A stretch of DNA of 63,751 nt, counting the filler, from Dugesia japonica (lineage: Eukaryota), in NCBI GenBank assembly GCA_001938525.1. It is 6 parts of 6 records of this genome, joined end to end, with 100 filler letters (N's around TTAATTAATTAA, not from the genome) between each part and the next. Parts side by side here need not be neighbours in the genome. Positions count along the whole stretch, not along the records: positions 11,435 to 22,206 come from MQRL01505650.1; 5 more parts are not named here. One strand, written 5' to 3'. This document shows, piece after piece, positions 11,335-53,560 of this stretch; position 1 is the stretch's first letter, and every line of letters starts with the position of its first letter. A model generated the notes under the pieces. It searched no databases and was not told the origin of the DNA. It saw nothing but the letters and a program-made list of their open reading frames with translations. A program made the translations under genes and the position numbers.

Positions 11335-11378
11335 NNNNNNNNNNNNNNNNNNNNNNNNNNNNNNNNNNNNNNNNNNNN

Positions 11379-11390
11379 TTAATTAATTAA
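11379..11390. other. Artificial scaffold linker TTAATTAATTAA within 44+44 Ns (also 22251-22262, 37084-37095, 45800-45811, 54737-54748)
   Basis: Identical palindromic 12-mer with stops in all six frames, centred in 100-nt spacers, five times. Confidence 0.95.
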
Positions 11391-11551
11391 NNNNNNNNNN
11401 NNNNNNNNNNNNNNNNNNNNNNNNNNNNNNNNNNAATCTTCACTGGAAAACTAAATATAATTATTTTTATCTTAACAAGGAAACTGATGAATTGTTAGAT
11501 GATCTTTTCTAATGGGTCCCTCTGGGCATATTATGATGAAACTGACCTATT

Positions 11552-12889
11552 CTAAGCTTCGCGTGCCGTTGGTTGTTGAGCCTTTTCTAAGTTTTGTGTA
11601 TAATTATTAAATTCTTCTAGTGTGATTTTTCCTTCTTCAAGTTCTTTTTCCTTTTCATATATTAAATTCATTTTCCTAGNNNNNNNNNNNNNNNNNNNNN
11701 NNNNNNNNNNNNNNNNNNNNNNNNNNNNNNNNNNNNNNNNNNNNNNNNNNNNNNNNNNNNNNNNNNNNNNNNNNNNNNNNNNNNNNNNNNNNNNNNNNNN
11801 NNNNNNNNNNNNNNNNNNNNNNNNNNNNNNNNNNNNNNNNNNNNNNNNNNNNNNNNNNNNNNNNNNNNNNNNNNNNNNNNNNNNNNNNNNNNNNNNNNNN
11901 NNNNNNNNNNNNNNNNNAATTTGTTTTCCAATATATAAATTAGTTTTCCAAATTTTAATATTTTCATTTATATTTTCCAGATTACTATTATCATTTTTAG
12001 GTAACATTATTTCATTTAAATCTAATGAAACTGGCAAATTATTATTTACAAGTGATTTTGAAAATAAACGAAAAAAATCACTATTAACTTCTAACATTAC
12101 ATCTTTAAAATCATCAGGAACATTATTCATATTAAACAATTCATCATCAGTATTTGTTTCCTCTATGGATCTTGTTTCAATTTCAGATATATCATCTAAA
12201 CTTCCATTTAACTCATCTTTTATTGTTAATGTTTCTTCATCTAGTATTTTATTTATCATTTCACTAGTTAATTTTTCACTTTCTTCTCCTTCTGCCTCGT
12301 GGTTTATTATAGCATCTATACATATTTAATCTAATATTTCCCTTATTATTTCCTCGGTTTTAGTTAGACATATTTCATTCTCTCTTCCTTGATATCTCAT
12401 AATTTCTTCATGAGTTTTTCTATATTCATTTTTTTCAAATAATTCAAAATTTTTTCTACAGATTTTACAAGTTATAATCATAGTCTTTTTATTAAATAAA
12501 TTAATATCATGCTTACACTTTTTATCATTTTTGAAATAATATTTTATATCCCATAAATAAGCCCAATAATTATTTTTTCTTTCATATTTTCTATATTTTC
12601 TTATAAATTTTTTATTATACTTTATTTCCGCTAATTCTTTATTTTTAAATTGAATTAATTTTAATAAACATTCTGTTTTAGTTGGTTTTTCACGAAATTC
12701 TAAATTAAAACCTGGTTCAATAACAATATGTAAAAAATCTCCATTTTCAGGATTTATTGTTACAAATAATTTTTTAATTTTTTTTATTAATTTTTCAATT
12801 TTACTATTATATTTTACAATTTTACAATCACACTCATCTTCACTATAATGAGAACATCCACTATCACTATCACTTTCAGATGTAGACAT
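11552..12889 (-). CDS. Hypothetical Polinton protein(s): 187-aa Lys-rich ORF with CxxC plus 235-aa acidic ORF, in frame across a single TAA at 12326-12328
   Basis: ORFs 12326-12889 and 11552-12259 share a frame (..REILD*ICIDAIINHEAEGEESEKLTSEMINK..). No recognisable family; internal gap. Confidence 0.55.
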
Positions 12890-12961
12890 TTTTATATAAT
12901 AATAATTTAATCATACATAACTGTTCGCATGCGAACAATTTCATATTCCAAGTTTCATGTG

Positions 12962-13573
12962 TCATTGTATTCCAAGTTTCAATTTCATTTCATTAATAAC
13001 TTTATTTTGATTTTCAAGTAACAATTTTATATCTTTACTCTGGCTCGCTTCGCTTGCATGTTTATGATTTGATATCAATTCATGTACATCAGAAACCATT
13101 TTCTTAGAAATACTTAACTCTTCATCTGTTAAAATTTCATCATGAACTGCTTTCTGTTGAAATANNNNNNNTTTATTTTTAACACATTCAAGTTTAGTTA
13201 TTAATTTTGAATATTTTTCTTTTCTAGATTTAACAAATGAAGTGTTCATTGTTCCAATTATTGGTAAAACTGAAATTGCACCTGTAATAACTGGTATTCC
13301 AATTCCAGTAATTGCAATTCCAATTGGAGTTATAAATATAATACCAGCCACTCCAATTCCAGCACTTAATAATATTTGTGTATATTTAATTCCAGTATCA
13401 ATTTTATTCCATCTTTTTTCTAATTTCTTATAATGTTTAATTTTATCTTTAATATAATACAAATCATTTTCAAAATCTTTAATTCTAGTTAAAGCAAGTT
13501 TATTTTTTAAATCATGAATAGTATATTCATTGTCATTACTCAGACTAGGATAAATATTTTCTCCTTCAATCAT
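12962..13573 (-). CDS. Putative membrane protein of Polinton/adintovirus type (two hydrophobic Gly-rich segments, C-terminal coiled coil)
   Basis: N-terminal IYPSL, hydrophobic ILLSAGIGVAGIIFITPIGIAITGIGIPVITGAISVLPIIG, and KAVHDEILTDEEL resembling the 'SKAL.DG.IS.EEF' motif recalled from Polinton accessory proteins. Confidence 0.65.
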   Translation of the reverse strand: MIEGENIYPSLSNDNEYTIHDLKNKLALTRIKDFENDLYYIKDKIKHYKKLEKRWNKIDTGIKYTQILLSAGIGVAGIIFITPIGIAITGIGIPVITGAISVLPIIGTMNTSFVKSRKEKYSKLITKLECVKNKXXXFQQKAVHDEILTDEELSISKKMVSDVHELISNHKHASEASQSKDIKLLLENQNKVINEMKLKLGIQ

Positions 13574-13588
13574 GCTTCGCTATTTTCT

Positions 13589-15819
13589 TTAAGATAAAGT
13601 TAAATATTTTAAATTAATTTCTTCTGGTAAAATTATTTGAATGTAAAATATATTTGTAACATTATTTATTTCAGTGCTTTCTTTAAAAATATTAACAGTT
13701 TTATCAGAATATGAATATGATAATTCTTTAAAATTAATTCCAATGGTGTATGTAAAATTTTCTTTTTCACAATAACCATTAATATTTATTTTTACTTTTG
13801 CATCGATTTTTGTAAATAAAAATATTTCTTTTATAAATTTACCATTTCTTATAAATTTTAAATCTTGAACATATTTCTCTAAAATAGAAAATTCTGGAAT
13901 ATTATCCTTAACTTCCCTAATTGAAAATAGTAAATGTGGATTTGAATAATAATGTAAATAATTATCGAATATTTCTCTTAAAGCTTTAAAATTTGAAGTT
14001 TTAAATAAATCATTAATTTTGTTAATATAAATTTTATGAAGTTTTGGTTTTAAACTTTCAAATTCTTTTTTATATTTACCTAAAGTATCAAACTTAATAA
14101 TTACATTTTTCATTTTAAATTTATTTACAAAAATTATTTCAATGTAATTTATTTTTGTTTCTTTGCTTACATAATNAATTTTAATATTTCCATCTTCAGG
14201 TGTAAGATGATCCATTGACACTGCAATATGATTAATTTTAATTATATAAAGAAATTTGTAAATATCACAGGTACCTTCAATATAAATAATAACTTTTTCA
14301 GTGATATTTGTATGTAAAATAATAGAATTTTTTTTAAAATCAAAACCAGTAACATGATCACTAATGTGAAATTTATCATTCAGTGTTTGATTCGCAGCCA
14401 GCAGTGTTTGATTCGCAGCCAGCAGTGTTAATATTGAATTGTCATTTTCTAAATACACATATTCTTTGTAATTATCAAACATTTCTCTTAAAGCTTTGAA
14501 ATTAAATGTTTTAAAATAAACATTAATTCTGTCAACATGTAACCTATGAAACTTTTTATTTTTATATTCTTCTTTTAACTTTTCAAACATTTCTAATTTA
14601 TATAAATTAACACTTATATCTTTTATATAAATATTTTCAGGTAAAATTATTACAATATATTTTATATTTGTATCACTAGTAATTTCAGTATTTTCTCTAT
14701 AAATATTAATATTTCCGGATTCAGGTTTTACATATAAAAATGACACTGCAAGATGATTAATTCTAATGACATATGTAAATTTTTCAATTTCACATTTACC
14801 AATAATACTTATACTAATTTTTTTATTTAATTTTGTGTGTAAATGAATTTCAAAAGGTTTTACAAGCTGAAAATATGTAAGGTCTAATGAAAAGAAATAA
14901 TTTTTTTTTCCTTTTTTAAAATAAAAATCGGTAACATATTTATTCATAATATTAAATTTTCCAAATATATCTTTAACAATAATTGAAAATATCTTATAAG
15001 TATTAGGTGTGTCATTATAATAAACGTGATTATCAAGTAATTCTTTTAAATTATTTAATGTTGAACTTGAAAGTGTTTCTTTATATTTTTTAAATAAAAG
15101 ATTAACTTTATCAGTATATATTTCATGTGAATATATACTCAATATTTCTTCAGTTAATTTTAAAATTATAGGTTTTATTTTTTCTATAAAGATTTTAAGA
15201 TTGTTCACAGAAATAATATAAATATCATATGTTTTCTTGTCTATATCATCATGTAATTTGTTAATTTTTCTTTTTAATATATCAATTTCTTTTTTAATTT
15301 TCAATGAATCAAGAGTATCTAATTTTTCTAAATTAATAATTAAATCACTTCTTTTAAATGGAAATAGTTCTTGTTTTAATCTTTTAATTTCAGTGTTGAT
15401 ATTATCAAATGTTTCTTGGTTACAGTTCTTTGTAATTTTTGAATTTTATTATTAAAACCTGAAATATCAACATTCAATGTTTTTAATTCATTAATTTTAG
15501 ATTCTAAATATAATTTGTTAGCTGTGAAACTGTCAACTTTTAATAATCTATTGAAAATTATTTCATGTTTTTGTAATTTTTCTTCAAGAGACTTTATGTA
15601 TTTTAAATTACTTTCTTCTGATTGTTTTATGTATTTTAAATTAACTGCATCTTGTAAATCTTTAGGGTCATCTGTTATTTTTAGAGAAGTAATTGTGTCA
15701 CCTGTTTCATTTACATATTTATTTTCATTTGTTGCATCTAAGGTTCTAATTTTTGCATTTACATTTTTTAATATTTCTGTTGAATTTACGGTATTAGCAG
15801 TAGCACCAAACTTATTCAT
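13589..15819 (-). pseudogene. Fibre/spike-like protein with three tandem C-terminal modules; apparently one gene frameshifted near 15420
   Basis: N-part MNKFG..YVNETGDTI..PKDLQDAVNLKYI resembles tail-fibre 'GDTM.G' and 'DAATK.YV' motifs. The frame of ORF 13589-15304 is open upstream to ~15445, overlapping ORF 15376-15819. Confidence 0.55.
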
Positions 15820-15845: not shown

Positions 15846-16292
15846 TCAGTTCTTTTCTAATATTGAATTATAAAGATCTAACATTTCAGATATTATCATG
15901 TCAAATTTTACATATTGAATTTTTCTTCCTTTATGGATCTTATATAAAAAATAAATACATAAAATGCCACATATTTCAGTGTTAAAATGTTGNNNNNNNN
16001 NNNNNNNNNNNNNNNNNNNNNNNNNNNNNNNNNNNNNNNNNNNNNNNNNNNNNNNNNNNNNNNNNNNNNNNNNNNNNNNNNNNNNNNNNNNNNNNNNNNN
16101 NNNNNNNNNNNNNNNNNNNNNNNNNNNNNNNNNNNNNNNNNNNNNNNNNNNNNNNNNNNNNNNNNNNNNNNNNNNNNNNNNNNNNNNNNNNNNNNTTGAA
16201 TATAAATCAAAATTTGTTGTTGTGTTAATTCCAAATGTTTTTAAAAAATCAATCAATGAATAATCTTGTCCACTATGTTGTGGTTCGTCCAT
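15846..16292 (-). CDS. Adenain-like (adenoviral/Polinton) cysteine maturation protease; centre lost in gap
   Basis: QHFNTEICGILCIYFL matches the Q-x5/6-CG-x2-C-x2-FL catalytic Cys block; N-terminal TTNFDL; adjacent to penton. Confidence 0.82.
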   Translation of the reverse strand: MDEPQHSGQDYSLIDFLKTFGINTTTNFDLYSXXXXXXXXXXXXXXXXXXXXXXXXXXXXXXXXXXXXXXXXXXXXXXXXXXXXXXXXXXXXXXXXXXXXQHFNTEICGILCIYFLYKIHKGRKIQYVKFDMIISEMLDLYNSILEKN

Positions 16293-16309
16293 TTTAATAA
16301 GAAAAGGTT

Positions 16310-16987
16310 TTAAAGTCGATACTTTCTTAAATGTACTAAAATTGTAATTGTTTCATTGTTAAAATCTATTGTGTTAAAATTTTCATCTACNNNNNNNNNN
16401 NNNNNNNNNNNNNNNNNNNNNNNNNNNNNNNNNNNNNNNNNNNNNNNNGATGGTCTTTCTACTATTTTATATCCAAATGGAACTGTGTTTATTGGAAATG
16501 AATATAAAAGATTAATATTTTTTGTTTCTGTGTTATTTGTTACATAGTTACCTTTAACAATGTTACATGTAATATTTATCGCGTTACTATTTATAATGTT
16601 AATTTAAGTATCTGAATAATAATTACCAGGTTCATATTTTCCAGGTTTAAATCCTAGAATTATATGGAAAAATGATTTATTATCAAATGTTAATATGTTT
16701 TTCTGGATCTTCATATTACATTTAGATGTTGCTGTGTCAGGTGTAATTTCTAGATATTTTTCTAAACGATTTGACATTTCTTTTACTTCATATGATCCTG
16801 GTTCTAAACTCATTTGTTTGTTATTGTCTATAATGTATTTATTATTTAAATTGTTAATGTTAAATATAATATTGTAACATGAAAAATATAACATGCCAAG
16901 TTCATATTCTGAATCTAATTTTATAGGATAATCTAAATTTACTTTTAAATCTTGTTCTGTTCCAACTACTAAGAATTTATGAGACAT
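16310..16987 (-). pseudogene. Minor capsid protein (penton, single jelly-roll) with in-frame TAA at 16604-16606
   Basis: YPIKLDSEYELGM..YNIIFNI..GSYEV..ILGF..YSDT*INIINSNAINITCNIVKGNY..VPFGYKIVERP[gap]VDENFNTIDFNNETITILVHLRK. Typical Polinton penton motifs continue past the stop. Confidence 0.85.
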
Positions 16988-16996
16988 TTATTATAT

Positions 16997-17950
16997 TTAA
17001 TTTTTGAAATATTTAGACTTATATTTTTTATAAATAATATCAGATAATAATCCTTGAGATTTTAAATTTTTACACACGGATTTAATTTCTGCATGTAAAT
17101 TGTTATGTCCAGATTTTACAGCTGAAATTAATAATGTTAACTTTTCAAATNATGCAATTGGATTTTTGTTTATTTTCATTCCATCAGCTTTTACTTCTTT
17201 TTTTAAAATTTGTTTAGCATCTTCTATTTCTTGTTGTTTTCTTTTAGCTTTTTCAATATCATCCTGTTCAATTCTACTTTTATTTTTTTGAATTAATGAT
17301 TTTAAATAACCACAATAATTATTTTTCACAGGTATTTTTATTATTTCTGTTAAATATTTATTCACAAAGTTTTTTATAGTAGTGTTATTATAGTAATCAA
17401 CTGCTTCACTTAGATTTCCCATCATTACATCAACAAATTCATTTTGATATTCATCTTCATAAATTTTATTATTTATTGATAAATGTTTTACATCTTTAAT
17501 TGTAAAGAAAAATACTGACGCATCTTTTGATTTAAAATATAATCTTGTATATTTTTTATCTGGTGTTACAGGTATTTCATCAATTTGAGGAACTATTGTT
17601 GGTGATAGATTATCAGTATTAAGTGTTAAATTATCAGGTTTAAATGGAAATACATCTTCAGTCATAAAAAACGTGTTAGTAATTACATCTTTATTGAATA
17701 AATCAATTATGGGTTCTGACTTTATGGGTTCTTTTATGACTTCTTTTATTGGTTCTAATGTGAGTTTTTCTTCCTTGTTACCCTTGTGGTTTTTCATGGT
17801 TTTTTCAATTGCAGAGATTGTTGGTTGTTGTAAAGTTGATAAGTTAGTTTGTAAAGTGTTATAATCATCAACTTGACCAGAATAATAATTATTATATTTT
17901 TCTTGTGCATCAATTAGTGCTTTTAATTCTTTAATTCGTTTTTCTATCAT
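16997..17950 (-). CDS. Conserved uncharacterised Polinton protein (putative structural/core)
   Basis: C-terminal KLTLLISAVKSGHNNLHAEIKSVCKNLKSQGLL resembles the Polinton 'RL.LL.A...AGN.....EI..I...L...G.I' motif; intact 317-aa ORF. Confidence 0.65.
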   Translation of the reverse strand: MIEKRIKELKALIDAQEKYNNYYSGQVDDYNTLQTNLSTLQQPTISAIEKTMKNHKGNKEEKLTLEPIKEVIKEPIKSEPIIDLFNKDVITNTFFMTEDVFPFKPDNLTLNTDNLSPTIVPQIDEIPVTPDKKYTRLYFKSKDASVFFFTIKDVKHLSINNKIYEDEYQNEFVDVMMGNLSEAVDYYNNTTIKNFVNKYLTEIIKIPVKNNYCGYLKSLIQKNKSRIEQDDIEKAKRKQQEIEDAKQILKKEVKADGMKINKNPIAXFEKLTLLISAVKSGHNNLHAEIKSVCKNLKSQGLLSDIIYKKYKSKYFKN

Positions 17951-17971
17951 TTCGCGTGGCTCTTTTATATA

Positions 17972-18520
17972 TTAATAATTTTCATCTTCGGTTTCAGTTT
18001 CAATACCTTTTCCTTTATTTTCTCCTTGGTGGGCTACGCTATATGGATTTAAATATATACCATGACCATGTTGAATTATATGAGTTCCATGTTTAAATTT
18101 TTTTGTTATATGTTTCATGTTAGGATCAATATTTTTTAAATATTTATGTATTGCTGTGCCTTGATATGGATTTAAATATATTCCTTGGCCTGTTGTTGGT
18201 TTTTGTTTGTTGTCGTCCTTTAAGATTTTTTGTTTTTGTAATTCAATTAATTCACCTTCTTTTTGTTTATTTACAGCTTCTCTAGAATTTGCAACTGTTT
18301 TTGCAATTCCAGCTGCAACTCCACCAGCAGATGCTAATGCAGTAACTATTGCTGGGATGGCAGCTAGAAATGCAAATCCACCTTCTTTACTACGAGCTTT
18401 TAATTCATCTTTAATTTTTTTAGAAATATAATAATTTTTACCATTTATTTTTACAGATTTACATTTTTTAGAATTTACAATTTTAATTAATTCTTCTTCT
18501 GTTATATTGCTGTCTGACAT
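17972..18520 (-). CDS. pX/mu-like core protein precursor
   Basis: KEGG|FAFLAAIPAIVTALASAGGVAAGIA resembles adenoviral pX 'GGFLP.LIP.IAAA'; duplicated G.GIYLNPY motif. Confidence 0.7.
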   Translation of the reverse strand: MSDSNITEEELIKIVNSKKCKSVKINGKNYYISKKIKDELKARSKEGGFAFLAAIPAIVTALASAGGVAAGIAKTVANSREAVNKQKEGELIELQKQKILKDDNKQKPTTGQGIYLNPYQGTAIHKYLKNIDPNMKHITKKFKHGTHIIQHGHGIYLNPYSVAHQGENKGKGIETETEDENY

Positions 18521-18528
18521 TATTTCTT

Positions 18529-21500
18529 TTATAGATCTTTATTAATATTATTATTTAAGCATGTTAATGTTCGATTTATTAAATCTAATCTTAAATGCCA
18601 TTGTGAGCATTTTTCACAGAAATATTGATTTCCATATGGCCATGTTCTAGTTGCATCATCTTCTATTATTATTTTATCATCAAATGCCATTAATGCTATT
18701 TTCTTTTGTTTTATTAATTCAATTTCATGACAATCAGATTTTAATGTATAATTTATTCCATAAAATACTTTACTTTTATCTTTTAATACTTCATCAAAAT
18801 CTGACATTAATAATTTATTATTTTTCTTGACACCTTTATTTCTTGAATCATAACTTTGTCCTTTATTTTCAGTGTAAGAATAACTATAAGATTTTGCTTT
18901 TATAAAATTACCTTGAATTATTTCATTGTTAGGTTTTTCATCTTTCATCTGAAATAAATTATCACCAAGTAGGCTTTCTAATTTTATTAAGTTATCTCTA
19001 TGTTTTATTTCAACAAAGATACAATCAGTATTTTTTATTATCAATGGAAATCCACAATTAAATGAGCCATCTTCAGTTTCAATGTCATATACATCTTCTA
19101 GATTTTCTCTTAAAAATCTTACACTTTGAAGATTAGTTTCAATTTCAGTTAAAGTTTCTTTTAATTTGAAGTCTTCTGTAATAATTAAATTCATTCCTAA
19201 AGATGTTCCTAGATAATATGCTTTAGATAAAGATATTTTATCAGTGATTGTTTTATTTAAAATGTCACATGTAATTTGTTTATTTAAAGATATTATTGTT
19301 TTAAATTTATTGTGTAATAATTTAGTTTCATATGTTAAATCTGTTGGTTTTATTTGTTCATTGTTTTCATTTAACAGTGAATGGTCTTCTGTTACATCTA
19401 CAATTCCCATATGAGTTGTTACACGATAAATCTTTTTATTTGTTTTATGTTTAATTACTTTTTTCAATGGAACCCAGTTACTTTTAGTCCAAATTTCATA
19501 ATTTTCTGGATAAGAATAATATTTCCCGTCATAATCATTTTTTGTATAAGATTGATCGATTTCTGAAATCTTTTTAATTTCAACTTTATTATTTTTTCTT
19601 AGAATCACTGGAGTGTCTTTTGTTACACTGTCACTGTAATGAATTTTATAGTTATCATTTCCAATTAAAGGTTGCATTTGATTGTAAATAAAATCATACA
19701 TTACTTCTTTTGCGTGTTCGAGGATTGTGAATCCTATATATGGAAATTTATTATAATTTAATTTACTTTTTATCATATTAATTGCGGCAACATGAGCTTC
19801 ATTTGTATCATTTAAACAGAAGATTTTAGATGATTTAAAAGTTGGTTTTCTTATAAACTTTCGATAATCTTTGTCATTGTCAACAATTTCAATGTTACAT
19901 CGATTTCTGATATTTTCTAGTGTTTTGCCATAGAAAGCATTTAACATTAATTTATAAATATAATCTCCAAAGACATCTTTAATTTTTTTAGATTCTTTTC
20001 TTAGGGATATTAATTTGTGAACATGATCTTTAAACCATGGAGATGTTTTCATTTCAATCATTTTATGTATTTTTACTAAAGACATGCCATGTTTTAAATA
20101 TAGATCTAATGTTGAACCTAGAACAGTATAATTCTTTTTATCGAATTGATTTAATGTTAGTTTAATATTATCATTTGATATTTTCTTATTAAATGATTTT
20201 TGATAATTACTTAACATGCCTTCTGTAATAAGGATTCTTTCTGGTGCTAATGGGAAATATTTTGTTTTTTCATGGATCTCTTTTGGATAATCAAGGTCGA
20301 CTTCATATATAAAATTCATTTTATTTGTGGCTGGTTCATAAGTTAGCTCGTTGGATTCTTTGAATTCACCTGTTGGAAGTGGTCTTGTCATGCATGATGC
20401 ATATAATGAATTTTCGTCTATATATTTTATAAATGTTTCTTCTTTCCAATCTACTGGTGGAGTTTTATTTTTTATTAATGAATATAATATCTCGCCAACT
20501 TGTGTTTTATTTAATTGTCTTGATATTCCAAATCTAGGATTTGAGATTTTATTATTTGAAAATACTTGACGTTCACCTAGAACACCAGAATAGCCACCAC
20601 GTATTCCAGATTCAATTAATAAGAAAATATCATAGGTTTCAGGTTTAGCATATTTTAAGTAAATATTTGCATTTAACATTCCAGTTTCCCATGAATATCC
20701 TGGTGCAGAATATGAATAACATGGATCTAGTTTTAGGATATTATTTAAACATGAAACTCTAAAGTTTTCAAGGAAATCTGTTAAAATTAATACATCAAGT
20801 TTCATGTAATGTAACATGTAATCCCAGAGATTTTTATAATCTAAAAAATCTATTAAAAAATTATCATATTCTTGATCAGATATTTCTTTTTGTGTTAGTG
20901 TATTAAAGAAATCTTTTCTAGTTGGTGTTCGTTTTGATTTTAATAATTTCATGACTTCTGTGACATTTTTACCTTTTACACATTCATATGGAAACACGAT
21001 TTTTTTAGGTTTTAAATTGTGGGATTTTAATATTGGATAATTATTAGATTGTGTTAATAAATTACCCATTACTTCTACGGATGTAAATGGAAGTAATCTA
21101 GCTGAATCTAAGAATCTAATATCTTCATATTGAAATGAAATATAATTTTCTGAACTGTGGGGTATTATTTTTTTAATTTTTCGTGTAAATTTTGTTATTA
21201 ATTCTTTGAAAAATAAATGATTATCATAGCCGGATGCGTTATGAAAATAAAATGGGATGAATAGATTCTTGATACTTCTATCATTAATATTACAAGTGTT
21301 ACATGAATATCCACGAGGTTCACCTGTGAAATGATTATGATCTAAAACTGGTTCTTTCAGGATCGGTTTTTCACAATAATAACAATTTTCATTTTTAAAA
21401 TCGCTATGCTGGCCTGTAGATGTTTTTATTAATTTATTTTCTTTTATATCTTGTAATTTATTATTAATGTCATCTAAAAATTCAAAGAATTCAAGATAAA

Positions 21501-22206
21501 TATTTTCACCTGTGAATTGATAATATTTTGATTCTAGGAGATGTTGGTGTTCACTGTGAAGATAAACACCTAAAGATATAGCTTTTTGTTTTTTAGTGTT
21601 AATATTTGTGTAAGCTTCAAAATCACCTATTAATATGAAAGGTATTTTATTTTTCATGTAAAATTTATTAAATGAATAATAACTTTTAAATGGAAATACA
21701 ATATTGTTTGGTTTGTGTCTAATACATGCATCTTGATGTTTAATTAATATTTCTTCAGATGAATAAGAATTCATACATCTTATGCATGGAAAAATTTTAT
21801 TTCCATTTTTTGAAAAGAATACAGATAGATCTCGACATAGAATATAATGATTTTTATATATCAAGAGATTACATTTATTTTCTTCTGGATTTGGTTTTAT
21901 TGTATGATGTGAAATGTAAAGTGGTTCAAGTTTTTTAGAATCATTAACACCGAAAACATTTATATTATAATCATTTAATTTCTCAAATTTGGGAATATCA
22001 GTTATTTTCATTGGAAATTCAAAATCTGATTTTAATTCTGATAAATGTGGAATGTAATTATTTACACGTGTTGGATGATCAAGTAGATGTTTATGTGCTA
22101 AGATTGAATATAAGAAGCATTTGTCATTTGTGTTTTCTATGTTGATTACACCTGGTTTTGAAAATGGTAATTTAATAAATGTTGCTCCATTTTTTGAATC
22201 ATATTT
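18529..22206 (-). CDS. polB: Protein-primed family B DNA polymerase (pPolB) with vOTU-like, Zn-finger, endonuclease-VII-like and intein domains; 5' end lost in gap
   Basis: Frame open for 65 more codons upstream of 22011 to the gap. ExoI IGDFEAY, ExoII FHNASGYD, ExoIII YMKLDV, motif A YIDENSLYASCM, motif B KLMLNAFYGK, motif C YSD|TDC split by the intein. Confidence 0.95.
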   Translation of the reverse strand, partial: KYDSKNGATFIKLPFSKPGVINIENTNDKCFLYSILAHKHLLDHPTRVNNYIPHLSELKSDFEFPMKITDIPKFEKLNDYNINVFGVNDSKKLEPLYISHHTIKPNPEENKCNLLIYKNHYILCRDLSVFFSKNGNKIFPCIRCMNSYSSEEILIKHQDACIRHKPNNIVFPFKSYYSFNKFYMKNKIPFILIGDFEAYTNINTKKQKAISLGVYLHSEHQHLLESKYYQFTGENIYLEFFEFLDDINNKLQDIKENKLIKTSTGQHSDFKNENCYYCEKPILKEPVLDHNHFTGEPRGYSCNTCNINDRSIKNLFIPFYFHNASGYDNHLFFKELITKFTRKIKKIIPHSSENYISFQYEDIRFLDSARLLPFTSVEVMGNLLTQSNNYPILKSHNLKPKKIVFPYECVKGKNVTEVMKLLKSKRTPTRKDFFNTLTQKEISDQEYDNFLIDFLDYKNLWDYMLHYMKLDVLILTDFLENFRVSCLNNILKLDPCYSYSAPGYSWETGMLNANIYLKYAKPETYDIFLLIESGIRGGYSGVLGERQVFSNNKISNPRFGISRQLNKTQVGEILYSLIKNKTPPVDWKEETFIKYIDENSLYASCMTRPLPTGEFKESNELTYEPATNKMNFIYEVDLDYPKEIHEKTKYFPLAPERILITEGMLSNYQKSFNKKISNDNIKLTLNQFDKKNYTVLGSTLDLYLKHGMSLVKIHKMIEMKTSPWFKDHVHKLISLRKESKKIKDVFGDYIYKLMLNAFYGKTLENIRNRCNIEIVDNDKDYRKFIRKPTFKSSKIFCLNDTNEAHVAAINMIKSKLNYNKFPYIGFTILEHAKEVMYDFIYNQMQPLIGNDNYKIHYSDSVTKDTPVILRKNNKVEIKKISEIDQSYTKNDYDGKYYSYPENYEIWTKSNWVPLKKVIKHKTNKKIYRVTTHMGIVDVTEDHSLLNENNEQIKPTDLTYETKLLHNKFKTIISLNKQITCDILNKTITDKISLSKAYYLGTSLGMNLIITEDFKLKETLTEIETNLQSVRFLRENLEDVYDIETEDGSFNCGFPLIIKNTDCIFVEIKHRDNLIKLESLLGDNLFQMKDEKPNNEIIQGNFIKAKSYSYSYTENKGQSYDSRNKGVKKNNKLLMSDFDEVLKDKSKVFYGINYTLKSDCHEIELIKQKKIALMAFDDKIIIEDDATRTWPYGNQYFCEKCSQWHLRLDLINRTLTCLNNNINKDL
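19030..19629 (-). mobile_element. Mini-intein (200 aa) in pPolB motif C (Pol-c site)
   Basis: Block A SVTKDTPVILR, block B VDVTEDHSLL (TxxH), block F VYDIETEDGSF, block G LIIKN followed by Thr+1. Excision restores YSDTDCIF. Confidence 0.93.
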
Positions 22207-22306
22207 NNNNNNNNNNNNNNNNNNNNNNNNNNNNNNNNNNNNNNNNNNNNTTAATTAATTAANNNNNNNNNNNNNNNNNNNNNNNNNNNNNNNNNNNNNN
22301 NNNNNN

Positions 22307-23433: not shown

Positions 23434-25150
23434 TACAATGAAATCTCCAAAGCTGAAAACTAGATAAGTTGAAAACCTCTTCAACTTGAAAGACAGGTCA
23501 GAAAAGGTCACACAAGCGAAAAAAAGCAACATAAAATCTCTATAAATTGAAAACCTCTCTATCTTTTAAGTTGAAACAATTTACAATATCAATTCATACA
23601 AGAATGATTTGTAGATTGCGTAGTGAAGAATTGTTCTCTATAACTTACCAGATCGCTATAGTATGAATAAGACAAAAGAGAATATCATTTTCGCGTTCAC
23701 TTGGGCTACTAGTTCAATTTTATACTGGAGAAATGTACAAATGAGAAGTATGGAGTAGGACGGATTTATCAACATAACAAATTAGTGTTAATGCCATAAA
23801 AGATTTTAACAAGACAAATTAAAAAAATTAATTTATTGAAAAAATCTCAGATAGTTTTAAATACTTACTTATTGATTACACTCAAACCCCGTTTTAACGA
23901 AAGCCCCGTTTTAGTCAATGTATTTCATAGTCCCCGCAACGATAAAGCCCCTCATATATAAAGAAACTCCTACTTTAACGAAAACCTCGATTTAGCGAAG
24001 AGATTTGTCTAACATTTCTGTAAATTAACCCTTAACATGAACATTAGTCCTCAAAGCATGTGCGACACTTGGATAGCAACACTTGAATATCATCATATGC
24101 ACTTTTTAATACAATTAACGTCTCTTTATTTATATCTTCTATTTAATGAAACCTATACAATCGTAAACTGTTGTTTATTCAATTTGGTCTTCTTTCAGTA
24201 ATTCTGTATATTATAAAATGAATTTTTAATTAAAATGTTATGGCAGAATAAAAGAAGATTTGTTGTAGAACCAATAAAAAATTAATTTAAATTGATATTC
24301 AACTGCCTAATGTCCAACTATTCTTCCTCCCGCCTAATATGACCTCTGCCACTCAACTTCTTGATCAAAGAATAATACAAAATTTCAAGATCAACTATCG
24401 CAAATTCTTTTTTCGGAAATTGGTCTTAGAAGCAGAATCATGCACTTCTGTGAGTGATTTTACACGTCGTGCGACCGTCTTGGATGCAATACGGTGGATT
24501 GTATGTTTATGGAATGCTCTTAAGACAGAAACTATTATGAAATGCTTTCATGCAGCAGGATTCTATCAAATTTCAGGTAATATTTATTTTTTTCTTTCAT
24601 TTGACCAGCCAAACTTTACAGATCCCATGAACACGTGTGATTATGTTGAAGAATCAGACAACTACGATGGGTTTCTTCAACAACTGATAGAAGTTCCATA
24701 GCTTGAAGATGTTTGCACGTTCTCAGACTTTGTCAGATGTGATGACAACGTTCTAACTTACTACTATGGTAGTGACTCATCAGATGGTATTCTTCAGGAA
24801 CATTTAAATGTGAATGTGTCTGACAGTGATGTAATGGTAGACTAAAAAGAAGCAATAACAGATCTCACAATGCCCGAAGCTCTTATTAACTTGACTTATT
24901 AAGCTCTTATTATTTTGACTCAAAAATTAAGAAATTTTGTACTGCAACATACTTCAACGTTGTCGAAGGGTATGATGGCGTTAGAGGCAAATCTTGAAAG
25001 AAGTAGAGATTTCTAACTAAGATGAAGATTCTCAGGATATGTACAATATACAAAATGGAAGATACAAAATTTATTCTACTTTCAATCAAAGCTATACATT
25101 GAATAATCCTTACTACATAAAATAACTGGTTTAACTATTTCAGTTTTTGT
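23434..25150 (+). mobile_element. pogo/Tigger-like DNA transposon remnants
   Basis: VQLFFLPPNMTSATQLLDQRIIQNFKINYRK..TVLDAIRWI..WNALKTETIMKCFHAAGF (DDE_1 C-terminus, ~24310-24700). pogo-like end motifs near 23434 and 23877. Confidence 0.75.
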
Positions 25151-25939: not shown

Positions 25940-27823
<1,884 letters not shown>

Positions 27824-29599: not shown

Positions 29600-30420
29600 C
29601 CAATATTTTGTCAATTGTCTGCGAAGTTAATGAATGTTTATCACTCCAATTGCTGTCGAGAGTTTTGATTAATAAAGAAGCTGATATCTTGGATATTCTG
29701 TCTTGATCACCAATTTTATATTTCTATTTTTTATTGTTTTTGATTGTTGCCTTGACAATCACAACGTTAATTTATTGTTTGAATCTACATCGATTGGTCT
29801 TGCTACATTTAGTCCTTTATGAGATGAATGATTATAACTATGAATGAGTTTCGCTAATACATTTATCCATGTTTTATTATCAGTATGTAGAAAATATTTC
29901 TTCAAAGCATCTCTCAACGTACTAATGAATCTCTAGACGTGCCTCCTTATATTCAGAGAATACAGAACTATGGTCAATTTTTAGATGTTTCTTAAGATTT
30001 TTGGCTTTGGTGTTGTAAAATCTTTTGCCCAGATCTGTTTGTCAAGTATCTGGATGTCTATCTTTAAACATTAACTTAATTGCTGGCTCCATATCATTAG
30101 CAGACTTTGATTTGACTGAAATAGCTTTTGCAAATCTACTAAATACATTGATACATGTCAAAATTTATTTAAATCCTTTATTAATCTTTGAATATGGGAT
30201 CATCCCCATCAATTCCATTTGCCATAAATCATCAATACTATATGTTTAATACGCTCTTGTTGAAAATCTTTTCAACATTGGCTTGTTAAGACTGTACGCT
30301 AGTTGACTCGATTACCACTTTTTGGTTTTTTCCTGGTTTTTGTGTGCTGCTTTTATCAACTTTTCTACGGCACAAAACCTGTGAGATTTTTTGTATCCGT
30401 TCATATTGTCTGTAGTTTGA
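29600..30420 (-). pseudogene. Polinton retroviral-like integrase pseudogene
   Basis: Manual translation across stops: QLAYSLNKPMLKRF..IDDLWQMELMGMIPYSKINKGFK*ILTCINVFSRFAKAISVKSKS..QTDLGK..ERFISTLR..WINVLAKLIHSYNHSSH..RISK..NWSD. Confidence 0.85.
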
Positions 30421-30505: not shown

Positions 30506-30710
30506 CTAATGGTGCATCAATGAATGATTCAATAAGAAATTGTCTTTTATTGCCTGCTTTGCTAAAAATTCAACAACTGTTTGATCCCTCAAATTCTTAA
30601 ATATAAACAGGTATTGTACATTTAAATTAAGCGTTCTATGACTTCCTTCTTGATGAAAGAGATTTTGAGTAATAAATATCACAGTCACACCAAAATGTCT
30701 TGATATTGTT
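30506..30710 (-). pseudogene. Polinton A32/FtsK-like packaging ATPase, C-terminal fragment
   Basis: ISRHFGVTVIFITQNLFHQEGSHRTLNLNVQYLFIFKNLRD matches the 'SHH.N.SVI...QNLF......RTISLN..Y...FKNPRD' block; immediately upstream of the integrase. Confidence 0.82.
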
Positions 30711-33700
30711 ATACATAATAATCCATATAAAACTATACAAAACCAAATCATATTTCAACTCTCAATTTTGCATAGTAATCAATAATTTGCTTTGTTCTAG
30801 TTGCATTTTTATTGTACAAATATGACTCATACTTGTATGAACCAATCAAAATCATGCAAACTAAACATTAGCGTGTATAAATATACTATAATTTACATTT
30901 CAATTTCATTAATTTTGAAAATGACAAAGGTTTTATCGTTAAAACAAATGTGAAATTGTTCATTATCTAAACTGTAAAGAAAGCTTATTAATTTATCTAA
31001 AGATAATGTCTTAACAGTTACTTTTGACTTTTGCAAACCAAATATGATGTATTCTTTTAAGAAGCCACTAATATATTCATTTCAAGTACTAATATTTACT
31101 ATTTAATTTAATTATTACTTTGTTTTAGGAACCTTTTAAGATGAAAAGATGCCCTTATAGTATGCTTGTATCAGAAATAAATTCCAATGATATGATGATA
31201 TTAAATCAACTCTTACAAAGATCTAACTCATCAATTGTAATAAAAAATGAGGTTTTTATTAATTCAAAGAATGTTCCTGAAAATACATATGATGTTGGAT
31301 ATCAAAACTTTTATAAATGGATGATTAAAATTGAAATCCAAGGATATAAAAAATTTGACATTATTATTGAACCAATCTGGAGTATAAAATGTGTGTACAA
31401 CGTTGATTAAAATGTGTTTATTAATAAAAGGTTGATATATATGTATTTTGTTATTTCTTAATAAAAACTAAATAAAAACAAAATAAGAAATATATTTATA
31501 CAACATAATTATTTTACAAAGTTCATATTTATAAAAATCAACTATTTACATTGCTTGTTGACACAGGATAGCATTTGTATTGCATTTTATCAATGAAATT
31601 ATATAAATCTGTAATAATGTTGTCAACATATCCATGATAATGTAAATTCTTTAGTGCAACTAGAACAAAGACATTGCAACAAGAGTGAAACTAGAACAAA
31701 GAACATGAGTCATACTTTTATTTTACGAAATAATATCATACAATACATACAATACGCCCAATAATGTCAAATAATATACACAATAAACCTTATAAAATTA
31801 TATAATGCATACATAATGTACTCTATATATTAACATCATACATACAATATACACTATAATACCCAATATATACGAAATAATATCATATAATACGCATAAT
31901 ACACGAAATAATGTGATAAATTGCATCCAATAATGTCTTATAATACATATATTTAACTAAATAAAATCATTTAAATACACACAATATACCTTATAGTTAT
32001 ATTATACATACAATTAACTCGATATGGTTATATAATATATACAAAAAAATCTAATAATTTCATATAATACACTCACAATAAACTTAATAACATTAAATAC
32101 ATACAAATACATCAATTGAACTAGTTAAAACATACAACAAATCCTATAAATACAGATAAATACATACAATAAACCAAATACACATACATCAAATAAACTC
32201 ATCTATTTAAAATATTAATATTAAATGTTCCCGAAAAAATATAAAAATTTTATACATATGAGTCATATTTGTGCAACATTAATGCAATGGAAACAATGAA
32301 AATGCACGATAAATCAAAGTTTTAATAAGGTNNNNNNNNNNNNNNNNNNNNNNNNNNNNNNNNNNNNNNNNNNNNNNNNNNATATTTGTGCAACATTAAT
32401 GCAATGGAAACAATGAAAATGCACGATAAATCAAAGTTTTAATAAGGTTTATTTATTATATTATGGAATTTGTAGGTTATCTATATAGTTTTATATATTC
32501 TTAAAAAGTATTAAGATTTAATTGGTTTGAAAATGTTTATAAAGTTCATAAGATTTTAATTAATAAGTTTTTAATTAGTAAATTTAAATTATTATTAAAT
32601 TAGTTTTTGTTTAAGTATATTAAATTAAAAATGATTGATAATTAATTATTATTATGATATGGAAATTTTATTTATTTATTTTTGTTTAACTGAGTTAAAT
32701 AAATAAAACGGTAGATGACCTTGAACAATCAATTATAAAATTAGTGAATATTTATTTGTTAATTTATTTTAATGATTTTTATTTATTTTAGATATTAACA
32801 GAATGAATTCAAGGAAAAATATTTCCACAAATATGGCAAGTTTAACTAATTAATTTATTGTTATTGATTTATATTTTAAACTGAAAACATAAATGAGTGT
32901 CTACGGAATTTTATTACAAAGGAATTTATGAATAGAGGTTAAATTCATTAATATTAAATTTAAGGCTAATGACTTTGTTTAATAATTATAAGTTAATGAT
33001 TTTTTTTAATAAATTTAAGTTAATGATTTTATTTTAATTGGATTATAATTTCATTTCAATTTTTAATGTAATGATTTAAACTTTACATTATATTATCAAG
33101 TTTAACTTAATAATTTTTATTTAATTTAGAGATTTTAATAGAACTTAATGATATAACTTAATTATTATGAAAAAGAAGCACATTTACAGGTAATTTATTT
33201 TGTTATTTAAACTAATTAATTTGTACTATTAAAATCTAATTTATAATTAAGATCTAGATTTAAACAATTTACATAATGATTGTAAATATCCATGTTTTAT
33301 CAATAATAAATTTTATGATTTGATTTCTCTTTTCATTTGTTTTTTATATATTAGTTTTAACATTGTTTGAGAAGCATCTAATCTTAATATTGCTCGGGCA
33401 AAATTCATTTCAAAATTTGAAAATTTAAACAAAATAAGTTTTCCCATCAATTTTCTATGAAAAATCCATAAAATCACCTAATTTAAATAAAAATCTCAAA
33501 AAATCAGTAAATTTAAACAAGTTATAAAAAATCAATTAATTTATAAAAAAATTTAAACATTGAAACAAAAATATTAAGTCTGCGTGGGAAATTTAAATAT
33601 GAAGTCTGCCCAGATGGTAGTTGCCATGAAAATAACCTTGACCTACTTTCATTTAACATTGAACTACATCTATTCGGCCTTGAAATATTACACCAATTTA

Positions 33701-37039: not shown

Positions 37040-38164
37040 NNNNNNNNNNNNNNNNNNNNNNNNNNNNNNNNNNNNNNNNNNNNTTAATTAATTAANNNNN
37101 NNNNNNNNNNNNNNNNNNNNNNNNNNNNNNNNNNNNNNNTTAAATGAATTCTATAAAACGATCAATGGTTAAGTCCAACAATTATTCTCGCAATAATTGC
37201 AATTTTAAAACAAATATTTTAGAAATTGGATTTTTTTCTCGAGATACGGGAAGTCGATTTTCTTAATTTTCTTTAGAAATTCTCGAGAAAAAATACTATT
37301 TGCAATAGAGTTAAACCAAACAAAGAATGGAAGTCATTTTTGAAATGTTTAAAGAAAGCGTAAAAAAGAGTTTTGTAAATTCATAAACAATAGCATACGA
37401 AGAATAATAGAATCATATCATGAGTGTTCATGTAAAGATATGATTATAGATACCTTCGATGTTGAGTTTCCAACTGTGTATTCTGCTATCATTATTGGTT
37501 TCATGAAAGAAAAGCAAATCAAGCACTAACTAAAATAAAGAGCAAATATAATTTATAAAGGAAAAGATTAAAGTTTGTGGTAGAATGTATTATTTAAACA
37601 AATATTTTTAGATTTCCGACAATGATTTGTAGATTATTTGATATCGAATTTTTTAACAATTAATAATAATTGATTCTTGATAAATTCATTAAAACAAATC
37701 TAAAATAATAATTTTAGTTTTATGAAACAATCAAAACTATATAAATATTAAATAAAATGTACAAATTAATTATGTAAGCTCTAAAATTGGTTGTTGAATT
37801 TTTCGAAAGTGATTTGTGAAACCCGATAAATAGAAAACGTTAATTGAGGAATCGCAAACAAGGTTTATTACAATCGCACCCAAAATTGTTATTCTCTTTA
37901 ATTTAGCAATGACATACTATTATTTGTGCTACAACCTGACATTTCAATTCAAATATTTCGATTTGAACTTTTGATTAAATAATTGTGAAATTCTAAAGGT
38001 CAGTAATAAACAATCGAATAACTTACAGATCACAGTTAGAGGAATTGCATTCTGCTTGTAATAAATTGGCTGTGGAGATATTTGGCGAGGATTTGTTAGA
38101 ATATCGATGGTTACAGTTACCAAGGTTCTGGAAATGATCACCATTAAAGCATTAATAGTTACGA

Positions 38165-44630: not shown

Positions 44631-46176
44631 TTCTATTTAAGTCTTACGCTGAAAACCTAATTCAAATAGTAGTTCATCCTTTTTCTATATTAATATCGCA
44701 TTTAAACAAATTTTAAATTTATAATTCTGGCAGAATTGTATTTAGTCGAGCTCCCTGGAGTAAATGCTACCATAAATTATCAGTGGAATGTTTAAGCTGG
44801 ACACATTAAACGAATTTTATTTGATATTTTATCAGGCACATCAGTGAAAACATGAAAATATTTGTCAACTATTTTGGATTTTTATTTTGCGATTTGTTAG
44901 TTTTTGTAAAATTGAAATATAATTTGTAAATATAATTATAATATATTATTGGGAAATATAAATTAGGGCTTTATTTTGTGGATTGTTGAAAGAGAATCAG
45001 ATGAAAATTTAGTCGAACAGAAACACGAACTGTTCCACCTGACAAAACAGAAGACAGCTGTTATTTATTGGAACGCTAGTTGATATTTGTTTAAATATAA
45101 TAGAATGCGTGAAACTGCAGAATAAACTCGATACGCTGGATTTCTGTCCGAAATAACACATTTCTGTTATTTGACAAGCAATTTTTTACCAAATCATTAA
45201 AACAAAATGTATAAAATAAATTTCTATTTTGTGATTATATTTTATCTGAATTGATGCTTTTCAATTTTATATTTTTATGTGTTTTACAGTTTGCATTTAC
45301 TTTTATCATCGTCTACCTTTACTTTTTATCATACCCTACAACTGATTTCAATGAATCCTTAACTGTGATAGCAGTTGACATCTCCTATATTGTTAAAGAA
45401 TGAAAAATAAGAATTTATTTGGGTAAATTTTATTAATAATCACAATAACATTAACATAAATCTTCGGCAAATCTGCAATTTCATGCAAAACAGAAACTAT
45501 ATTTAGAGTATATTTTACGCACACGTACATATTGACTTTTCAAAATTCACACAAAAAAATATTACAACAACAAATAAAATCTTAGCATACTCAATGTTGA
45601 CTTTTAAAAAAGTCCTCCAATGAAATACTCTGTCAAATAAAATTCATAAAGCAAATTTCTAATCAAATGATTTGGTCACATCGAAATAACATTGGTCGCA
45701 CATCAACTTTTGAATTTTCGCTATCAACAGAGGGTTTGGGATCGAATCCCTTAAANNNNNNNNNNNNNNNNNNNNNNNNNNNNNNNNNNNNNNNNNNNNT
45801 TAATTAATTAANNNNNNNNNNNNNNNNNNNNNNNNNNNNNNNNNNNNNNNNNNNNCATGTTTGAATGTTTTCATATTATGTTTGAATGTTACATGTCACA
45901 TTTTTATGTTTTCATATTATGTTTGTTTCTTTAATATCAAAATTAGATATGTTTTCATGTGAAATATTGCATTTTACATTTTATGTTTGTATCTTACATG
46001 TCACATTTGTTTCTTTAATATCAAAATTAGATATGTTTTTATGCAAAATATTACATTTTTTATGCAAAATATTACATTTTACATTTTACACCAAAATTTG
46101 ACCTAACTGTGGGCTAATTTAAGGTCTTTTCTCACTACTCATATTGTATGTAAAATGTTAAATTATTATTAAATTA

Positions 46177-48149: not shown

Positions 48150-49750
48150 GCAGGGGTAATTTTTAAAAGTGTCATCGTATATCTAGATGATATATTAGTG
48201 AATGGAAGGACATTTGAAGATCATAATGAAATTTTGAAAGAAGCTGAATAAGAGAATCAGGATTGTGAATAAATCCAAAAAAATGTAAATTTTATCAAAA
48301 TCAACTGGTCTTTTTGGTACACTCAAAAAGTGCAGAAGGAGTAAAAACAAACAATACTAAGATAAAGGAAAAAAATGCCAAAGAACCAAAATGTTCATCT
48401 AAACTCAGGTCTTTTCTTGGTTTAACGAATTCCTACTGACGTTTTATCAAGGATTACGCCAGAATTGCAACACAGTTATATGAAGCTATTTCAGGATGCG
48501 ACAAAACCTTGATATGGACAGAAGCATACAGAAAAACTTTGAAAACTTAAAAGACAAGTTATGTAATGCACCAAAAGAAAATAGAATGTTTATCCTGGAT
48601 ACAGATGCTAGTTTCGGAGCTATTAGTGCAGTGTGGAGTCAAAGAACAGAAGATAGTGTAAAGGTGGTGATAGCATATAGATCCGGGCACCTCACTGTTT
48701 GCGAAAAGAGCTACTGCGGTACAAAAAATTAATTTCTGGCATTACATGAATGTGGTACATTTCAAGCAATATCAATATAGAAAGAGATTTTTAGCAAGAA
48801 AAGATTACAAAGCACTGATATTTATGAATAACACAAAAAATTCAATAAGCCCACATTTTCAGACGTGGATGGAAAATCTGGGAGAATATGATTTTGAGTT
48901 GAAATATCAAAAAGCGAGAGAACAACAACAAATCTGATGGATTATCGTGAATAAATGAGTGTCTATGCTTACAATGCCAAACAGTTAATTTGGATGCCAA
49001 GAAAGAAAAATCAAGAGTAAAATATATTAATTGCATACAACAGATTGAAAACAGCATTGAAAAAATTAGGAATACACAGAAAGATGATCAAATAATACAA
49101 AGTATTCAAATCATGCAAAACGAAGTACGACTAACAGAAAATATCATGGATAAACTTGATTGCGAATTGAAAATTGATGATGGATTATTAGTCGTAGAAA
49201 GAGAAAATAAAAATTTGATAATGATATCAAATAGTATAACCAACGAAATAATCAGACATATTCATGAAGAATTATGTCATTTAGAAATAAAGAAGATATT
49301 TTCATATTTAGAGAATAATTATTACTGGCCTGCAATGATAGAGACTATTAAAAATAACTTGAATAAATGTGTGATTTGTGCAAAAAGGAAAATTGTTCAA
49401 GGAAGAACGAAAGAGTTGCTGTTACCTAGAAAGTGTCAAGATATTTTTGAACAAATTGTAATAAGTATTGCTCAAATAGAACCAGTTGCATCAGGAAAAA
49501 AGTATATAGTGGTGATTATCGGTTTAGCAAACTGGTCAATGGAAGAAACACTTACAAAAAGATAATTTCATGTGGGAGACGAAGTATTGATAAAACTAGA
49601 AACTAGAACAAAAGACAATTAAAGATACGCTGATCAATATAAGATTACGGAGAAAGTACATGAGAGAAAATATCGTATACAAAATGAAAATGGAAAAGAG
49701 CTAGAAAGAAACGTAAAAAAGCTTATAAAATTCTTTTAATCGCGAAGATG
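48150..49750 (+). pseudogene. Ty3/gypsy pol remnant (RT-RNase H-integrase)
   Basis: YLDDILV, FILDTDASFGAISAVWSQ, integrase Zn-binding HEELCH..YYWP..CVIC; integrase core deleted. Confidence 0.85.
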
Positions 49751-52829: not shown

Positions 52830-53560
52830 ATCAGTGCTTGTTTCATTTCTGCAAAAGCTTTCTCTCATCCATCTGAACATATTTGTTTGGCGCTGTTGCT
52901 TCAACATAATTCTTCAAGGGATCTTGATTTTTCTGAACAATTTTTAATAAATCTTCTGTAATAATTCATAATCCAAGGAAGCTTCTCAGACTCTTTAAAC
53001 ATTTGGATTTCTCAAATTTCTTGATAGCTTCAACCTTCAATGGATCCATTCGAATTTCTTCTTTAAATATTATGTAACCAAAAAATTTCACTTCTTTGCA
53101 TAATAGATTACATTTTACTGGATTCACTTGCAGCCCTGCCTCTTGGATCCGCTCTAATACCTGACATAGAGTTATAAAATGATCTTTTAGTCCTTCTGAG
53201 AATGCTATTATGTTATCCATATACATCAATGCTCCATACACACCTTCCAATACTTTCGTCATAAGTTCTTGGAATGTTTTTGGGGTTGTTGCTATGCTAA
53301 TTGGCATTCTTATAAAGCAGTTTTGACCATTTTTTGTCGAAAAGGCTGTTTTCTCTTGTGACTCTTTTTCTAATGGTACCTGGTAATACGCGTTTCCAAA
53401 TTTTATGGTACTGAAAAATTTGGTCCCATACAAATTGTCTAACATTTCTTAAACGTTTAGCATCATGAAAACTCTGTCGTTCCGTAACTGCGTTCAGTTT
53501 CTTGAAGTCCAAGCAAAGTCTCACATCATTTCTTTCTTTCTTCCAGACGCATATTAGTGG
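52830..53560 (-). pseudogene. Ty3/gypsy reverse transcriptase remnant
   Basis: RLCLDFKKLN, NAYYQVPL..KTAFST, YMDN (YxDD degenerate), LRSFLGL. Confidence 0.85.

Follow-up and report, generated by a model that had tools for sequence, protein, structure and literature searches.

Inteins inserted at the pol-c site of DNA polymerases are a known kind, and a close described case is the intein in the PolB of APMV (R322), which is 351 aa long, carries a LAGLIDADG endonuclease and occupies the site YGD/TDS, the slash marking the point of insertion (Ogata et al. 2005, PMC549080, in the portion of the text available). The same portion, which does not give the penultimate residue of this Mimivirus intein, argues for a stepwise transfer of it in a situation like the present one. 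Inteins are also described from algae and labyrinthulids, where they lie in DNA polymerases of endogenous giant viruses (Gallot-Lavallee et al. 2023, PMC10710043, available part), and the same part sets out how inteins in general home, by cutting empty sites that are then filled when repair copies the intein in.

In the protein-primed polymerases (pPolBs) of Polintons, HNH and VSR nuclease insertions have been reported without the word 'intein' being used in the text available (Jeong et al. 2023, PMC10748475), and it has been suggested, in the accessible part of a later paper, that invading inteins gave rise to such nuclease inserts (Krupovic et al. 2024, PMC11161782). A census of eukaryotic and viral inteins does not use the word 'Polinton' in its available text (PMC5784728), and according to a review, in the part available, metazoan genomes have no inteins (PMC8529194). 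In the available parts of this literature, PMC5871332, PMC12220804, PMC5718144, PMC13768754 and PMC3671162 included, no intein with a splicing domain was found in a Polinton polymerase; the search covered main texts rather than supplements, subscription journals or Repbase, and a Polinton might yet appear in the intein lists of PMC10710043 and PMC5784728. The intein described here, from the planarian Dugesia japonica, is therefore of a known kind in a host class for which no earlier report was found, and it belongs to a lineage of its own that is apparently undescribed.

When set beside these systems the D. japonica intein is like that of APMV R322 in its site within motif C, in having Ser first, Asn last and Thr at +1, and in belonging to the same broad giant-virus family, but it is 200 aa long and lies in a protein-primed polymerase, whereas the APMV intein has its endonuclease and an RNA-primed PolB as host. 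It shares with the inteins of algae and labyrinthulids that they are viral polymerase inteins on nuclear scaffolds and have spread between barely similar proteins; those, however, are in giant-virus inserts of non-animals, and the available main text of that study mentions neither Polintons nor animals. The HNH and VSR inserts are likewise extra domains within Polinton polymerases, but no splicing domain has been described for them, whereas in D. japonica there is a complete intein of predicted HINT fold with LAGLIDADG relatives.

The intein and the element that carries it

The window, meaning the whole stretch of 63,751 nucleotides that was analysed, holds on its minus strand an ORF for a protein-primed family B DNA polymerase, 1160 aa from the first Met (18529..22011; PF03175, E=2.5e-17), in which exonuclease and polymerase motifs are recognised. 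No stop interrupts the frame, which runs on into the assembly gap at 22207 and may therefore lack its true start. Positions 19030..19629 of the minus strand translate to exactly 200 aa, from Ser-Val-Thr to Ile-Lys-Asn, in frame within this ORF and splitting motif C as YSD/TDC. The residues of a class 1 intein are found, namely Ser1, Thr80 and His83 of block B, Asp182 of block F, Asn200 and Thr+1, the penultimate residue being Lys199, so that the common but non-obligatory penultimate His is absent. Blocks A and B lie in the N-terminal splicing region (19309..19629, minus strand, with Thr80-x-x-His83 at 19381-19392), and blocks F and G at 19030..19092 (minus strand) have the 20-residue spacing of Polinton and ChoanoV1-type giant-virus inteins. 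The 42-residue block singled out in the initial annotation is at residues 45-86 (19372-19497).

The match of the intein to Pfam is weak (Intein_splicing, E=0.03) and a search of Rfam gave no match, while 1205 homologues were found at E<=0.001. An AlphaFold model made from a 7-row alignment has a mean pLDDT of 80.2, with a disordered stretch at residues 110-129 (pLDDT<50) and a helix at 131-143; the top Foldseek matches to the model are solved inteins, the best at E=5e-7, and a HINT fold is predicted. The 200-aa segment is confirmed by its sequence features as a real intein, predicted to be self-splicing, which is how it had first been read.

Where relatives have their LAGLIDADG endonuclease (blocks C-E) there is a short linker of low model confidence (19240..19308, minus strand), and when aligned to endonuclease-bearing relatives both LAGLIDADG motifs, the pair that marks a mobile intein, are gone. 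About 159 residues (112-270) of P0003, the best-matching relative among those listed, correspond to about 19 in D. japonica. The helix at 131-143 matches block H of the relatives, and the linker segment singled out in the initial annotation, at residues 131-147 (19189..19239, minus strand), is a remnant of the lost endonuclease; the absence of LAGLIDADG blocks, the short linker and the block-H remnant were all rightly recognised in the initial annotation, as was the loss of the endonuclease core. A contrast in GC was considered as a mark of recent arrival and rejected, with the intein at 0.237 and the extein at 0.248 there being no foreign signature.

The intein is not the only addition to this polymerase. 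An Endonuclease VII (His-Me finger) domain (21286..21405, minus strand; PF02945, E=1.6e-6) is found at residues 203-242 in the N-extein, outside the intein. Other genes of a Polinton were sought with profiles from 29 Polinton-like loci. Two adjacent frames at 16313..16987 (minus strand) are a likely penton (minor capsid) gene, matched by a profile from 14 Polinton-like loci at E of about 1e-12 per part; the penton and capsid family labels are ones we assume. A frame at 15846..16352 (minus strand), which has an N gap inside, may encode a maturation protease on the strength of a motif that we take to be that of the protease, and it has no database match. Broken pieces of a Polinton-type rve integrase (29762..30245, minus strand) and a piece of a packaging ATPase of A32/IVa2-like type (30506..30754, minus strand) were matched by profile 7.5-8.5 kb away and beyond a gap, so they perhaps belong to another element. 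The likely major capsid family had no match in the window with the profiles from the 29 loci. Of 194 inverted pairs in positions 1-40000 the 25 longest are gap linkers, microsatellites and short matches, with no terminal inverted repeats of the kind that in Polintons go with a 6-bp target duplication, the contig ending at gaps. With the protein-primed PolB expected of Polintons/Mavericks present, the element is a fragmented Polinton, and the relatives of its polymerase that carry eukaryote names come from mussel, wasps and fly.

Unnamed ORFs run in the direction of the polymerase at 11552-15819 and 16997-18520 (minus strand) with no Pfam or PHROG name; those at 12962-13573 and 17972-18520 have hydrophobic helices, and one ORF of 571 aa has an internal repeat. 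AT-rich overall, the window abounds in fragments of eukaryotic transposons. Those at 24291-24701, 26481-26900, 48951-49565, 52966-53448 and 58742-59134 are host-side repeats, of pogo-type DDE, FAM200/ZBED5-like hAT, LTR integrase, reverse transcriptase and RNase H types, the hAT piece resembling animal FAM200/ZBED5 proteins with look-alikes in arthropods, molluscs and chordates. This resemblance, the oligo-dT RNA runs of the species and the mussel, wasp and fly relatives of the polymerase point to a host that is probably an invertebrate animal. The N runs at 11335-11434, 22207-22306, 37040-37139, 45756-45855 and 54693-54792 are contig joins, paired and of equal length, and three of them hold a short palindromic linker; the sequences on either side may not truly adjoin.

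Relatives of the intein and their phylogeny

Relatives were drawn from the best 120 of the 1205 matches plus further listings (347 listed proteins), and the best match among those listed, P0003, is a protein-primed polymerase whose copy of the intein also has a LAGLIDADG domain. Polinton-type polymerases account for 10 of the 347 (8 by profile, P0003 and P0025 by reading), and one more that bears the intein, P0286, was found among the relatives of the polymerase. Both LAGLIDADG motifs are present in all 12 Polinton rows other than that of D. japonica, and the endonuclease-bearing alleles for which a search of related Polintons had been proposed do exist. The record of P0286 is in a bacterial bin assigned to a clam symbiont, but as its exteins fall with polymerases of Mytilus it is probably host DNA.

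The remaining relatives are mostly RNA-primed PolBs, with 297 rows at the same site, 37 at the Pol-b site and 20 in apparent topoisomerases. In a separate set of 160 loci from alignment scans every extractable Pol-c intein (138, the other 22 loci not being parsed) was in a giant-virus-type PolB; viral contigs scanned with single proteins gave nothing, and there was 1 weak match among 50,697 phage records. The Lys-Asn ending of the D. japonica intein had been noted as non-canonical; it is indeed present, but as a sign of mimivirus origin it was rejected, being the majority ending (198 of 297 Pol-c inteins).

Two side observations concern the wider family. In the 20 rows with a D-x-D/T-D-G motif, P0140, P0145, P0146, P0169 and P0342 among them, inteins of this family lie in what appear to be type II topoisomerases, P0342 having topoisomerase Pfam domains; these appear to reflect a move into a non-homologous protein whose motif resembles the usual one, of which the literature consulted held no obvious report. 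Three bacterial bins (L190-L192) hold polymerases with giant-virus-type Pol-c inteins and are probably mis-binned viral contigs.

A FastTree phylogeny of 367 rows, made without 12 near-duplicate Polinton members and without partial inteins, unites the 13 Polinton rows (SH support 99) within a clade of 107 rows (99) that includes ChoanoV1. IQ-TREE was run on three subsets of 82, 79 and 34 rows, with a mixture model among the runs, and returned the Polinton clade at 100/99 each time; within it the inteins of D. japonica and P0003 are sisters (87/87, 69/93 and 94/90). The clade is nested among giant-virus inteins in the maximum likelihood trees (97/94, 93/87 and 98/92), and its sister link to the ChoanoV1-type clade has support of 91/93 and 68/89 in two runs and no resolution in the third. 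The archaeal Pol-c inteins (16 rows, from 22 archaeal loci examined), which include the split intein NEQ068 of Nanoarchaeum equitans and share the site and a weak match (E=0.0012), differ in falling on a separate side of the tree (100/99). By these placements the intein groups with giant-virus inteins rather than with archaeal or phage ones; a grouping with archaeal or phage inteins had been named beforehand as an outcome that would tell against a giant-virus source.

The mimivirus-type intein to which the initial annotation likened that of D. japonica was represented by L035, presumably mimivirus-type from its neighbouring genes, the gene order being as we assume it, the APMV sequence not being among the rows. 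L035 lies outside the Polinton clade and, over the splicing columns, is 51% identical to the D. japonica intein, compared with 65.5% for P0003, no giant-virus row exceeding 54%, so that the supposed near-identity was overstated. A spacing of 20 aa from block F to the end is found in 13/13 Polinton and 94/94 ChoanoV1-type rows, and a spacing of 21 in the other Pol-c (203/203), Pol-b (37/37) and topoisomerase-site (20/20) inteins and in L035, that is in all 261 other viral rows; as archaeal rows have 22 or 20 the indel gives no direction. The nearest giant-virus lineage is thus that containing ChoanoV1 and not the mimivirus type.

The ChoanoV1-type (Imitervirales) Pol-c inteins, such as P0348, resemble the Polinton ones in the 20-residue spacing, an ending of G-F/Y-P-L type, the final Lys-Asn (94/94) and an alignable endonuclease. 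They differ in an N-terminal insertion of roughly 10 residues, the lack of which makes the Polinton inteins sister to the ChoanoV1-type clade and not part of it, and their host polymerases have no BLAST match to the D. japonica exteins at E<0.01. Several are on GVMAG contigs, and 90 of 97 interrupt PolBs that share a clade with ChoanoV1 and L035 (support 97). The other 7, P0162, P0210, P0372 and P0182 among them, are in PolBs outside this Imitervirales-like clade, which indicates that the lineage moves among giant-virus groups as well. That a mini-intein was captured directly from a giant virus was considered and rejected, since the mini forms of giant viruses have different linkers, keep the N-terminal insertion and branch elsewhere.

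Polymerase phylogeny and filled and empty alleles

The extein tree rests on the uninterrupted segment that precedes motif C and covers 68 rows, with 12 left out for want of a detectable motif, and in it the D. japonica extein groups with four empty polymerases (96). The intein is patchy, being present in 2 of 66 related polymerases and in none of the 29 Polinton-like loci, and its label needs 8 changes on the extein tree. Among the carriers of the D. japonica polymerase class the branching of the inteins is the branching of the polymerases. The class of P0003 is only 16-21% identical to the rest in its polymerase, but 49-65% in its intein; between D. japonica and P0003 the values are 18% for the extein and about 65% for the intein, and BLAST of the D. 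japonica exteins against P0003 and four giant-virus PolBs gave no match at E<0.01. It is probable from these identities that the intein has jumped between polymerase classes only 18% identical.

Separate trees of intein and extein had been proposed at the outset, an ancient Polinton-specific clade congruent with the extein tree being the result that would count against transfer from a giant virus. The outcome comes near to this, as the intein is in a Polinton-only clade congruent with the polymerase tree within the D. japonica class; in the maximum likelihood trees that clade is nested among giant-virus inteins. It could be that the intein is native to Polintons and older than the split of the polymerase classes, with giant viruses having obtained it from them or from a common source. 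The mirrored branching fits this, as does the correlation of intein with extein identity (Spearman 0.62, from non-independent pairs), and AU tests allow the Polinton inteins to be sister to all giant-virus inteins with an archaeal outgroup (p=0.447; p=0.049 with a Pol-b outgroup) and P0003 to be basal (p=0.257). Yet giant-virus members are far more numerous and diverse, with three sites and several lineages, compared with 10 of the 347 listed matches for Polintons, the intein of P0003 is as close to the others as they are mutually despite its distant polymerase, and the maximum likelihood trees nest the Polinton clade. A Polinton-native intein is on this evidence unlikely. A giant-virus donor is favoured instead because of that nesting, common to all of those trees, and because of the much greater size and variety of the family among giant viruses.

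Whether the Polinton alleles still home can be judged from families with both filled and empty copies. Of the 136 members of the cluster of P0037, the 15 listed (P0037 and P0449-P0462) comprise 7 filled copies, 6 empty ones and 2 that do not reach across the site, at 94-99% identity. Set against P0037, the empty copies have changes at 8-9 of the 20 residues next to the site, compared with 1-5% far from it, and fall into three site variants. This divergence may be escape of the target site or a co-converted tract; its sharpness at the target site suggests ongoing homing. In the cluster of P0009 an empty copy is 99% identical to a filled one, with 0/90 differences in the flanks.

Such patterns could also arise if the intein came from a giant virus but no longer homes in Polintons, filled and empty copies resulting from loss and from recombination between Polinton families, and a recombined tract would leave the 8-9 of 20 differences of P0037 just as well. 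Against this, LAGLIDADG is intact in 12/12 rows whose polymerases are 39-85% identical, which implies lasting selection, the filled and empty flanks of P0009 are identical, and pairs of empty copies from P0037 also disagree at the site (by 3-5 of 20 in three of the four pairs compared), so that an end to homing is very unlikely. Continued homing between Polintons, at least by endonuclease-bearing alleles, is the reading retained here.

In D. japonica the Polinton family is very high-copy, with about 23,500 contigs per DNA run on positions 18000-22000, most of them 90-95% alike. In three of four runs of the species (X1, X2 and X8) there are contig joints from which a net 600 nt is missing at the intein, so that filled and empty alleles are found together in this host too; X1 or X2 may be the source of the sequence studied, and that X8 is RNA is a guess. 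Contigs of about 90% identity cross the shortened linker, and the mini form is therefore common to diverged copies. One raw RNA run gave 1 read in 10.5 million, again with the status of X8 as RNA guessed.

Origin, spread and significance

This endonuclease-less intein is one of a Polinton-only clade that we consider probably goes back to one old transfer from a giant virus, followed in all likelihood by homing between Polintons. That single transfer is itself likely on the phylogenetic placements. A direct and fairly recent move from a mimivirus-like PolB during co-infection, with a virophage-like past for the element, shares with it the site, the Lys-Asn end and strong block similarity, and AU tests do not reject joining the D. 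japonica intein to L035 (p=0.153 and 0.065) or to the ChoanoV1-type clade (p=0.196), but it is very unlikely given the Polinton-only clade at 100/99, the 65.5% identity to P0003 as against 51% to L035, the 21-aa spacing of L035 and the even GC. Of the transfer first proposed, then, the giant-virus family of the Pol-c mini-intein stands, and its passage straight from a mimivirus into this element does not, the trees and the indel being against a grouping with mimivirus-type inteins that the AU tests do not formally reject. Recent co-infection or a virophage history for the D. japonica element is unsupported, and as contact with a giant virus is needed once only it says little about the element's way of life.

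Under the old transfer favoured here, an endonuclease-bearing Pol-c intein of a mainly Imitervirales lineage would have entered a Polinton polymerase by way of the short common D-T-D motif, which is the only alignable sequence. The target sites of D. japonica and 11 giant-virus loci match at 11-14 of 18 nt, so the first jump is not explained by ordinary homing. Endonuclease-bearing alleles would then cut empty sites in co-resident Polintons, repair copying the intein in, and with most polymerases remaining empty the intein would have lasted by homing again and again into near relatives. Homing of this kind, largely confined to kin, would account for the apparent co-descent and the scattered presence alike. 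One jump would have crossed the two deeply split polymerase classes of the D. japonica lineage and of P0003, and for this crossing, as for the initial entry from a giant virus, repair would have had to work with very short stretches of homology.

In the D. japonica family the endonuclease would have been deleted, leaving a mini form that multiplies only as a passenger of its element. Splicing would proceed as in class 1 inteins, with an acyl shift at Ser1 aided by Thr80 and His83, attack by Thr+1 and cyclisation of Asn200, Lys taking the place of the penultimate His. As the intein separates the two aspartates of motif C the polymerase needs splicing, by established intein chemistry, and the splicing domain would therefore be kept under selection after the endonuclease was lost.

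There is probably a Polinton intein lineage in animal genomes. More tentatively, and at somewhat less than an even chance, animal genomes may harbour still-mobile inteins derived from giant viruses that jump between polymerase classes through D-T-D, with an arms race of homing and escape in the germline that leaves resistant empty sites. Polinton polymerases were previously only suspected of intein invasions (PMC11161782, in its available part), and there is now a complete intein together with an endonuclease-bearing clade. The intein would record contact at the level of DNA between giant viruses and Polintons, and it has probably crossed between polymerases with almost no sequence in common. 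With filled, empty and endonuclease-less copies in single families, these elements offer a system in which the homing cycle can be counted inside eukaryotic genomes.
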